Shown here one piece after another: positions 1-32,000 of a stretch of DNA of 32,000 nucleotides. Positions within the stretch are counted from its first letter, which is position 1. Every line of letters starts with the position of its first letter. The translations under genes were made by a program, and so were the position numbers. The stretch comes from Candidatus Saccharimonadota bacterium (GTDB lineage: Bacteria > Bacteroidota > Bacteroidia > Flavobacteriales > Blattabacteriaceae), in the NCBI RefSeq assembly GCF_000709555.1, contig NZ_CP006873.1, positions 277,300 through 309,299 of the forward strand, read 5' to 3'. The notes under the pieces are model-generated. The model saw only the letters and a list, made by a program, of their open reading frames with translations. It was not told the DNA's origin and made no database searches.

Positions 1-1311
1 ATTTATTCCTCTTTGATTGCAAAAAAAAATCTGATCTTCTCCAATTTTCGATGTGGTAGCTTCATGTTCTATCCTTGCAGAAGGATTGTTTACTTCTATG
101 TTAGGGAAGGTGTGGGCTCCACATTTATTTCCAATAAGTAGTGAATCACATTGAGAAAAATTTCGGGCATTTTCCGCTTGTTTGGAAACCTTTACTAATC
201 CTCGATAACTATTTTGTGATTTTCCGGAAGAAATCCCTTTAGAAATAATGGTACTTTTTGTATTATTCCCAATATGGATCATCTTAGTTCCTGTATCGGC
301 TTGTTGAAAATTTTTTGTAATAGCTACGGAATAAAATTCTCCAATTGAATAATCTCCTTTCAAAATGCAAGATGGATATTTCCACGTTATGGAAGAACCA
401 GTTTCTACTTGCGTCCAGGAAATTTTAGATCTTGTTTCGCAAATTCCCCTTTTCGTGACAAAGTTATAAACTCCTCCCTTTCCGTCTTTATCTCCAGGAA
501 ACCAATTTTGCACTGTCGAATATTTAATTTCAGCATCTTCTAACGAAATAAGTTCTACTACGGCAGCATGTAACTGATTTTCATCTCGTCTTGGAGCAGT
601 ACATCCTTCCAAATAACTTACATAAGCCCCTTTACCAGCGATAACTAATGTCCGTTCAAATTGTCCTGTCCCTCCTTCGTTAATCCGGAAATAAGTAGAA
701 AGTTCCATTGGACAATGAACTCCATCTGGTATATAACAAAACGAACCATCAGAAAATACTGCAGAATTTAACGCAGCATAGAAATTATCTCTTATTGGGA
801 CTACCGTTCCAATGTATTTCCTTACTAATTCAGGATGCTTATGTATAGCTTCATTTATTGAACAAAAAATAATCCCTTTTTTTGATAAAGTTTTTTTGAA
901 AGTAGTCGTTACAGATATAGAGTCTATTACTACATCTAGAGCAACTCCCGCCAAATACTTTTGTTCTTCAAGAGGAATTCCAAGTTTATTAAAAGTTTCT
1001 AATAAATAAGAATCCACTTGATCCAAACTATTGACAGTAGTTTTTCTTTTAGGAGCAGAATAATAACTAATATCTTGATAATTAAGTTTTTTATATTTAA
1101 TCTGAGACCATTCAGGCTCTTTCATTTCTTTCCATATTTTAAAGGCCTCTAGTCGCCACTGCATCATCCAATTTGGCTCAGATCTTTTTTTTGAAAGAGA
1201 AACAATAACCTTTTCGTTGAGACCTTTAGGAAATTTATCAGAATCGAGTTGAGAATAAAAACCATACTTATATTCAGATTCAGGAATCTTCTGAAGAAGG
1301 TCTTGTTTCAT
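1..1311 (-). CDS. sufB: Fe-S cluster assembly protein SufB, partial (C-terminal end lies beyond the left window edge)
   Basis: Absent from the ORF track because there is no stop in the window. Own reverse-strand translation from ATG at complement(1309..1311) gives [20 protein letters not shown]...[47 protein letters not shown]...[18 protein letters not shown]. It stays open through base 1 (1311 nt = 437 codons). The sequence is typical of SufB. Confidence 0.9.
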
Positions 1312-1312
1312 A

Positions 1313-1640
1313 TTAAGCGTAAAAACTCCCTACGCAACCACATTCAGCATTCGGGTTGTAAAAACCTACAGATTTTATTTCTCCTTCCTTAAATACTTTG
1401 TCTTTAGATAAACCTTCTTCTTGCATCAATAAATTTTTTTTTATACAGAATAATCACTGTAGTGAGTGTCTATATATATACTATTTCTCTTAGTGAAAGT
1501 CTAAAAGATCATAACGTCTCATATCCGTTCCTACTAAACATATTGGGTTGGTCTCGTCCTTTTACACGAGCGTTCTCAATTTCTAGGAAATCTTGCTTCA
1601 GTCTATCGATAGAAATTAACCTGCATACATAATGCCATGG
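1313..1640 (-). pseudogene. Eroded A-type Fe-S carrier gene (IscA/SufA/ErpA family) directly upstream of sufB
   Basis: Reverse translation of 1313..1453 gives [46 protein letters not shown], the family C-terminal signature (NPNA..CGC..SF). An in-frame TGA at complement(1454..1456) truncates it. Further upstream a different frame reads ISIDRLKQDFLEIENARVKGRDQPNMFSRNGYE, which is N-terminus-like but has no recognisable GGCSG cysteine motif. The track has no ORF of 60 aa or more here. Confidence 0.6.
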
Positions 1641-31187: not shown

Positions 31188-31201
31188 GAGATAGAGAAGT
31201 A

Positions 31202-32000
31202 ATGAAAAAAAAAGTGTTGCTTGAAGTAAAAGCTTGCAATCGAATCCTATAGTGTGCAACATTCGCATCAGAAACTTCTCTGGATACCGCACCTGATTGA
31301 AAAAATTACGCGCCGTTACACTTCTGAATTAATAAAAAAAAACTTTATCGGTATCCTGATTAGGAGAGAGAGTTGGAGATCATTAAAGCCTGGTGAAGTG
31401 GCTTGCGTAACCGGAGGGCAGAGTCCGTGGACGTATTACTGGATTGCGGGTTAGAAGATAAGCGTCTCATCATCACGCTGCAAAGTTTTTTTACTGGTGC
31501 TAAAATAATAGCTGAGAGAGAGTGGGCTAACGAAAATGGATTAAATACGAATAAAGTAAAAGCATATATTAAAGAGAATAAATCTATCCAGATAATAGAA
31601 AGGCTCTTGAATGCGACCTATGCTCTAGAAAATGTCATTAATATAGGGAATGCTCATATGATACAAGCAAAAATTATATATCGTCATATGTTCTGAATAA
31701 GAGTGGTCTTATTATCATTACGGATGTTTATCTAAATGCTGGGTAACGGTTTCTTACTTTGAATGGTTAAAAAATATAAGTAAGGTGCGCTCCGGTAGAT
31801 TAGAAAAACGGTTTAGCGAAATGCAGAAATTATTCGTGCAGCGTCTAAGTGAAAAGAATATTAGGACCTGATGAAATTGACGCAGTGGTCTAGAAGATAC
31901 TATGATCAATGCATATTTCATAAAACAAATTCAACAAGAAAAACATATACCGCTATTGGAAAAATAGTGTTATAAACACTTAGGGATAAGCATTTAAATA
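31202..32000 (+). pseudogene. gdh: Eroded glutamate dehydrogenase gene (Glu/Leu/Phe/Val dehydrogenase family, animal/Bacteroidota-like subtype); may touch the right window edge
   Basis: Shifting plus-strand frames are colinear with GDH. They begin MKKKVLLEVKACNRIL*, then SLDTAPD (cf. DVPAPD), ACVTG (31401..31415), DKRLIITLQSF (cf. DKTFVVQGFGN) and FTGAKIIAEREWANENGLNTNKVKAYIKENKSI. They continue NAHMIQAKIIYRHMF* (cf. NA..VKAKIIAEGANG), then ITDVYLNAG with a 1-nt frameshift into VTVSYFEWLKNISKVRSGRLEKRF (31735..31775). The last matches are GLEDTMINAYFIKQ and YTAIGKIV. There are many stops and frameshifts and large N-terminal deletions. Confidence 0.8.

Follow-up and report, generated by a model that had tools for sequence, protein, structure and literature searches.

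The final 32 kb of a symbiont genome that consists of one contig of 309,299 bp with 32.66% guanine plus cytosine (bases 277300–309299, the whole stretch analysed here and referred to as the window) holds six long spacers between its genes. In all likelihood these spacers are non-functional remnants of iscA, trmD, fabF, atpD together with atpC, nadK and gdh, on which selection was relaxed before the lineage split from a sister species and which have since undergone neutral, deletion-biased decay. From the agreement in size and base composition with the published genome, we infer that it is that of the giant-scale-insect symbiont "Candidatus Walczuchella monophlebidarum" LLAX. Exactly six spacers in the window are longer than 105 bp (1312–1759, 10025–10316, 12119–12686, 12930–13925, 22253–22662, and 31188–32000, numbered 1–6 in this order), and the longest of the others measures 103 bp (18160–18262), in agreement with an earlier reading of the window, here called the original prediction. 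That reading had also taken every long spacer for the remains of a dead gene, and homology was indeed found for all six, by blastx for four of them and by a chain score for each. The last spacer stops at the end of the linearised record, and mnmG starts across the origin.

The window's own genome (G000) was compared with the whole genome of a sister species in the same genus (G001, 288,648 bp), with the whole 630-kb genome of a relative (G011), and with the closest less-reduced relative (G002), of which 1.19 Mb of sequence was used. Blastx of the spacers against the open reading frames (ORFs) of G011, G002, and G001 gave significant multi-frame matches for fabF, atpD, nadK, and gdh (E 5e-7 to 4e-31), and the G011 subjects are named FabF, AtpD, NAD kinase, and glutamate dehydrogenase by NCBIfam. 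The standard tools (blastx, Pfam hmmscan) are on their own significant for these four spacers in G000, with iscA and trmD staying below significance in that genome. As ordinary aligners penalise many deletions and frameshifts, we wrote a co-linear chain score, in which ungapped codon blocks are scored with BLOSUM62 at a cost of 16 per jump or frame change and the result is given as z relative to dinucleotide shuffles. Ten G002 proteins were scored against the six spacers. The diagonal values of this matrix are listed in Table 1, and all off-diagonal values were 2.2 or lower with the sole exception of DnaK against the gdh spacer (4.2). Using tblastn, all seven proteins matched G000 and G001 in these spacers only, with no intact copy elsewhere, and profile searches with PF01521 and TIGR00088 found nothing in either genome.

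Four of the spacers can be named from these matches directly. The fabF remnant covers residues 23–431 of 436 in 553 bp (44% of the intact length), with blastx E-values of 3e-8 and 1.4e-8, a subject named by TIGR03150, and chain z of 33–44; the adjacency of acpP and fabF is also found in G011. In spacer 4, residues 1–491 of the 505 in AtpD are spread over 816 bp (54%; blastx E 7e-25 and 4e-31, subject named by TIGR01039, chain z 79), and the Walker A motif is still present as AGVGKTVIIQ*LINNIA, interrupted by a stop codon. The neighbouring atpC remnant holds residues 10–76 of 81 in 138 bp (56%) and scores z 11.9 with the AtpC of G002 and 7.0 with that of G011, both of which have atpD and atpC in this order. 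Spacer 5 matches ORFs of 298–303 amino acids (aa) in G011 and G002 by blastx (E 5e-7), the G011 ORF being an NF002521 NAD kinase (E 2e-107). The nadK remnant retains residues 35–294 of 303 in 397 bp (45%, chain z 17–20), and the order nadK-rluB-aroQ-engB is that of G011, inverted. Finally, the gdh remnant represents residues 45–485 of 487 in 775 bp (54%; blastx E 4e-26 and 2e-29, subject named GDH, chain z 44), and leuS and gdh are adjacent in G011 as well.

On its sequence, the minus strand of spacer 1 reads as IscA minus its middle. Residues ∼23–117 of 117 are represented, ∼35% of the 330-bp gene is left, and in the block alignment the remnant keeps the successive blocks ..LMQEEGLS, KDKVFKEGEIK, FYNPNA, and CGCVGSFYA*, so that NPNA..CGCVGSF is retained from the C-terminal CGCG-type motif of A-type carriers. 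As iscA lies immediately upstream of sufB in both G011 and G002, synteny makes a sharp prediction for this spacer. The chain score against the G002 IscA is z 10.4–11.4, and in a genome-wide tblastn search IscA matches the orthologous G001 spacer, right upstream of sufB, with an E-value of 1.4e-6. A small custom IscA hidden Markov model (HMM) gave merely 5.4 bits on spacer 1, since long internal deletions are penalised. Taking the chain score, the motif, the sister-genome match, and the position together, we accept spacer 1 as a putative iscA remnant. The ∼330 bp at 1430–1759 presumably hold divergent promoters.

Spacer 2 appears to be what is left of trmD. The remnant corresponds to residues ∼112–222 of 234, or 28% of the intact length, and the N-terminal half is gone. 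The best weak blastx match of the spacer is the C-terminus of TrmD and not Clp. When the G002 TrmD was searched against the whole genomes with tblastn, the top match in G000 fell within spacer 2 (residues 188–222) and the top match in G001 within the orthologous spacer (residues 108–144), a different part of the protein. Chain z for TrmD is 7.2–7.6 in G000 and 9.2 in the orthologous G001 spacer, and the C-terminal TrmD motif IDEWRYGQSLQRT is aligned to IDHWCYEQSLRHT in the block alignment. The gene trmD is usually regarded as essential. Among other relatives with tiny genomes it was not found in four (G004, G006, G010, and G012); G005, G008, and G009 do have it.

Several points weigh against this account, most of them concerning spacers 1 and 2, and they should be read together with the alignment uncertainty and the unpolarised gaps given below with the sister comparison. 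Neither spacer has a blastx match at E < 0.01 (E 0.02–0.17 for iscA and trmD in G000 alone), a Pfam match in hmmscan of six-frame translations with stops read as X, or an HMM match in a search of its own genome: spacer 1 is missed by PF01521, and spacer 2 is not reached by TIGR00088 at E 0.01, a model that has no trmD match in the rest of G000 or in G001. For 1430–1759, neither blastx nor Pfam gave anything significant. An adjacency of trmD and rpoN is seen in none of the more distant relatives outside the genus, and in G002 the two genes merely share the same ∼90-kb neighbourhood. The accepted names of both remnants lean on the custom chain score and the sister genome, and in the case of iscA also on synteny. 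A synteny check against relatives, as proposed with the original prediction, came out well for five loci, where the remnants match the positions of intact orthologs in G011 and G002 (iscA-sufB, acpP-fabF, atpD-atpC, nadK-rluB, leuS-gdh), and gave regional proximity only, in G002, for trmD.

The original prediction had named spacer 2 as a Clp/Hsp100 ATPase and spacer 5 as probably DnaK; its iscA/sufA, fabF, atpD plus atpC, and gdh have held. Both other candidates were rejected. For Clp at 10025–10316, chain z is 0.7–0.8 with ClpB and 2.2–3.2 with ClpC in G000, falling to -0.3 and -1.3 in G001. TIGR03346 matches only the intact clpB at genome positions 119566–122112, Pfam is blank, tblastn with ClpB and ClpC yields no more than two matches in the spacer, both at chance level (E 8 and 93) and close to its rpoN end, and rpoN is not beside clpC in any of 15 relatives. 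The motif ILLYVDEIR..GETAAVDA, which looks like a Clp Walker B, overlaps the part of the spacer that matches TrmD. By eye it fits TrmD ..IILCGHYKGVDQRV..GGEIPAAVVTDA better, in a frame-0 reading that lies outside the computed alignment blocks. DnaK shows no similarity to spacer 5 (22253–22663; chain z 0.4). An intact dnaK lies at genome positions 34537–36435, and its product is full length and 80% identical to the G002 protein.

The remnants have much in common in the way they have decayed. Their spans amount to 28–56% of the intact length, meaning that 44–72% of the codons are lost. Each remnant lies in two or three frames and several contain in-frame stops. In all of them except trmD the loss has come about through many small internal deletions and not through one truncation, so that iscA, fabF, atpD, nadK, and gdh follow the intact protein co-linearly, starting close to its N-terminal end and finishing close to its C-terminal end. 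Sequencing or assembly errors, for instance in homopolymers, would be one way to obtain frameshifts and stops in genes that are in fact intact or rescued by transcriptional slippage, and the 2014 genome paper does caution that a gene with a frameshift in a homopolymer tract may in some cases remain functional (PMC3971599). Given the missing codons, the many frame changes, the several stops, and an independently sequenced sister in which these remnants recur at the corresponding positions, some of the lesions being identical, this explanation has next to no chance of being right.

The same six remnants are indeed found at the same positions in G001. In a global alignment of the window with that genome, intact genes are 95.5–97.7% identical and nearly free of indels, and the divergence at four-fold degenerate sites is K = 0.126. 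The six spacers are 70–82% identical (82% with 16 gap events for the whole of spacer 1), with 6–33 gap events each and K of 0.20–0.38, values that are inflated by alignment uncertainty. Neither lineage has kept any of the six spacers under constraint since the two separated. The two genomes have in common a stop codon in atpD (GKTVIIQ*LI), both internal deletions in iscA, and the absence of the N-terminal half of trmD, which places the inactivation of these three genes before the split. From the shared lesions in three remnants, and from the presence and equal lack of constraint of all of them in the sister, it follows that the whole set was probably dead by then.

Since the split, each genome has retained residues that the other has lost. 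For FabF, 26 aligned residues are present in both genomes, 138 in G000 only and 84 in G001 only, and for gdh the sister keeps 1026 bp as compared to 816 bp in G000. Gap lengths range from 1 to 207 bp. If all gaps are taken as deletions, the ancestral DNA in these spacers comes to at least ∼4.2 kb, of which G000 has lost ∼15% and G001 ∼26%; the indels are not formally polarised by outgroup DNA, and part of the gaps could stem from sequence gained by the other lineage. Much of the sequence found in one genome only still matches the G002 protein and is thus ancestral.

The spacers might alternatively have been kept as functional non-coding elements, either promoters for sufB, acpP, and rluB or small RNAs. 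Transcripts of these three genes must start inside spacers 1, 4, and 5 or run across them, and the nadK spacer has shrunk to 152 bp in G001, where the adjoining rluB is dead, as compared to 410 bp in G000. Yet the spacers diverge at or above the rate of four-fold degenerate sites and are broken up by lineage-specific indels from one end to the other, stretches of 400–1000 bp are more than short promoter elements would explain, and a search of the window for Rfam families matched tRNAs only. We consider retention for such a function very unlikely.

According to the original prediction, the six remnants (IscA, Clp, FabF, AtpD, DnaK, and GDH) were snapshots of different ages, with the retained fraction, put at a tenth for Clp to over half for others, serving as a clock, and with chaperones among the losses. 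Four of its six names are right, there is the weak ClpC resemblance of spacer 2 in G000, and a real age contrast does exist across genomes: lepA, rluB, and rseP are intact in G000 and decayed in G001, where what remains is 92–93% identical to the G000 genes, and these are younger pseudogenes of the sister. Within the window the picture is different. Clp and DnaK fail all tests, the figure of a tenth followed from the wrong gene assignment, and once the genes are named correctly the retained spans are similar. All six are decayed and neutrally diverged in the sister, three with shared lesions, and the window alone yields no order of age among them. As a whole, this version is very unlikely.

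The near-uniform retention and the lesions shared with the sister could also be read as a sign that the genes died together in one ancestral burst, for example at the acquisition of a co-symbiont, which would make the sister comparison a usable deletion clock. We regard this as possible and somewhat doubtful. If true, 15–26% of pseudogene DNA would be lost per 0.06 neutral substitutions per site, and pseudogene DNA would have a half-life of ∼0.15–0.27 substitutions per site.

Our preferred explanation is relaxation before the split followed by neutral decay. Selection on these genes would have been relaxed in the common ancestor, probably through a supply of ATP, lipids, NADP, and glutamate by the host or a co-symbiont. 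After the split the sequences would have evolved neutrally, with deletion-biased mutation stripping different pieces from each lineage. The spacers would then be DNA on its way out and not functional elements.

A seventh dead gene is found in the 48-bp spacer between rpmA and serS. Here, the 3′ acceptor strand and a decayed T-arm of tRNA-Arg(CCT) are left after a deletion of ∼52 bp, and the 3′ end is kept in G000 as ..CTGGTTGC. The tRNA gene lies beside rpmA in G001, G002, and G011, and no other copy could be identified anywhere in G000.

Taken together, the window has lost an A-type Fe-S carrier, tRNA m1G37 methylation, fatty-acid elongation, the F1 beta and epsilon subunits of ATP synthase, NAD kinase, glutamate dehydrogenase, and tRNA-Arg(CCT). 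Translation factors, aminoacyl-tRNA synthetases, leuABCD, and aroQ are retained. The functions that the original prediction gave as kept, translation and leucine/aromatic biosynthesis, are all there; the loss of chaperones has to be struck from its list, as none is lost in the window and ClpB (genome positions 119566–122112) and DnaK are intact elsewhere. A crude genome-wide survey, in which ∼110 kb of G002 were left out of the reference set and small intact genes make up some of the unmasked intervals, returned 70 intervals of at least 150 bp outside intact-looking genes. A decayed-gene signature was seen in 33 of these (36.8 kb, 12% of the genome; median identity to G001 85%), and the window therefore appears typical of its genome.

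Table 1. Remnants and genes of the window. Gene positions come from a map based on the ORF list, tRNA calls, and NCBIfam names; (-) after a name marks the minus strand, and z is the diagonal value of the chain matrix.
Feature	Position	Strand	Context	z
iscA/sufA-type Fe-S carrier remnant	1316–1429	-	directly upstream of sufB; 114 bp	11.4
Rest of spacer 1	1430–1759		between iscA remnant and lepA	
tRNA-Arg(CCT) remnant	4209–4256	+	48-bp rpmA-serS spacer	
trmD (tRNA m1G37 methyltransferase) remnant	10063–10253	+	191 bp, two frames	7.2
fabF (beta-ketoacyl-ACP synthase II) remnant	12133–12685	-	directly downstream of acpP	44
atpC (F1 epsilon) remnant	12949–13086	-	directly downstream of atpD remnant	5.3; 11.9 on own sub-region
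atpD (F1 beta) remnant	13102–13917	-	many frameshifts and stops	79
nadK (NAD kinase) remnant	22267–22663	+	adjoins rluB	16.6
gdh (glutamate dehydrogenase) remnant	31214–31988	+	directly downstream of leuS	44
lepA	1760–3556		G001 copy 1003 bp, 56% of length	
rluB	21512–22252	-	G001 copy 138 bp, 19% of length	
rseP	24423–25673		G001 copy 767 bp, 67% of length	
sufB	before spacer 1	-		
lepA, rplU, rpmA, serS, metF, frr, asnS, rpoN	between spacers 1 and 2			
tRNA-Met, tRNA-Leu(-), gltX	between spacers 2 and 3			
acpP	between spacers 3 and 4	-		
leuB, leuD, leuC, leuA	after spacer 4	all -		
tyrS, era(-), engB, aroQ(-), rluB(-)	after leuA, before spacer 5			
tRNA-Phe(-), tRNA-Arg(-), pth(-), rluD(-), rseP	after spacer 5			
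76-aa ORF(-), U32 peptidase(-), holB, leuS	after rseP, before spacer 6			

Three of the intact genes deserve a comment. The 76-aa ORF (25726–25956, minus strand) is without an NCBIfam match and shares 29 nt with the end of the U32 peptidase gene. It has 96% protein identity in G001 and an 84-aa counterpart in G002, and is probably a real small gene. LeuA (16996–18159, minus strand) has 387 aa that match positions 4–383 of a 516-position model and is without the C-terminal regulatory domain. As its ortholog in G011 is comparably short, the shortening predates the genus. The asparagine-tRNA ligase gene asnS (7139–8557) is apparently intact (602 bits with NF003037, whose cut-off is 414); asparagine tRNA synthetase was stated to be missing from the genome in the 2014 text (PMC3971599).

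Genome erosion in this organism is already on record. The 2014 genome paper described 27 pseudogenes and concluded that the genome, which has an enterobacterial co-symbiont at its side, continues to shrink (Rosas-Perez et al., 2014; PMC3971599), and 27–35 pseudogenised coding sequences are given for the 309,299-bp genome across that paper and a later one (PMC3971599, PMC12188211). The later study compared seven Walczuchella genomes, with 27–84 pseudogenised coding sequences each and complete synteny (Choi et al., 2025; PMC12188211). Intergenic remnants were sought there by BLASTx with Pseudofinder, accelerated pseudogenisation was tied to co-symbionts and to the loss of replication and repair genes, and lepA and rseP were found to be dead in some strains (PMC12188211). 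Erosion of energy-metabolism and cell-envelope genes, with the co-symbiont as likely cause, is reported in both papers (PMC3971599, PMC12188211). The published erosion concerns the same organism and genome and leads to the same conclusion of continuing shrinkage, and the idea in the original prediction of deletion-driven decay in a still-shrinking nutritional symbiont with a co-symbiont agrees with it.

The details differ in some places. Unlike the 2014 paper, in which atpCDEH and fabF are given as absent (PMC3971599), we find recognisable remnants of atpD, atpC, and fabF. Remnants of trmD, nadK, gdh, iscA, and tRNA-Arg(CCT) are not named in the main texts of either paper (PMC3971599, PMC12188211). 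The present analysis thereby corrects the record for atpD, atpC, and fabF and makes the losses of the other five genes traceable, and it quantifies, one locus at a time, the whittling down of dead genes in a very small symbiont genome. By itself the finding tests no open question. As both the phenomenon and the pseudogene richness of Walczuchella have been published, what is new here may be detail only.

In obligate intracellular bacteria, dead genes shrink by many small deletions and accumulate neutral substitutions while keeping their ancestral position. Deletional bias and pseudogene decay of this kind have reportedly been described by Andersson and Andersson, by Mira, Ochman and Moran, and by Gomez-Valero et al. 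for Rickettsia, Buchnera, and Mycobacterium leprae. The remnants in the window show the same stepwise shrinkage in place as in those bacteria, but the genome they lie in is already tiny, at 0.3 Mb, and belongs to an ancient symbiosis. Tiny ancient symbiont genomes usually hold very few pseudogenes. The contrast with the many pseudogenes of this one was already drawn for Walczuchella in 2025 (PMC12188211), and the comparison of each locus with the sister genome adds detail to the Walczuchella record and not a new principle.

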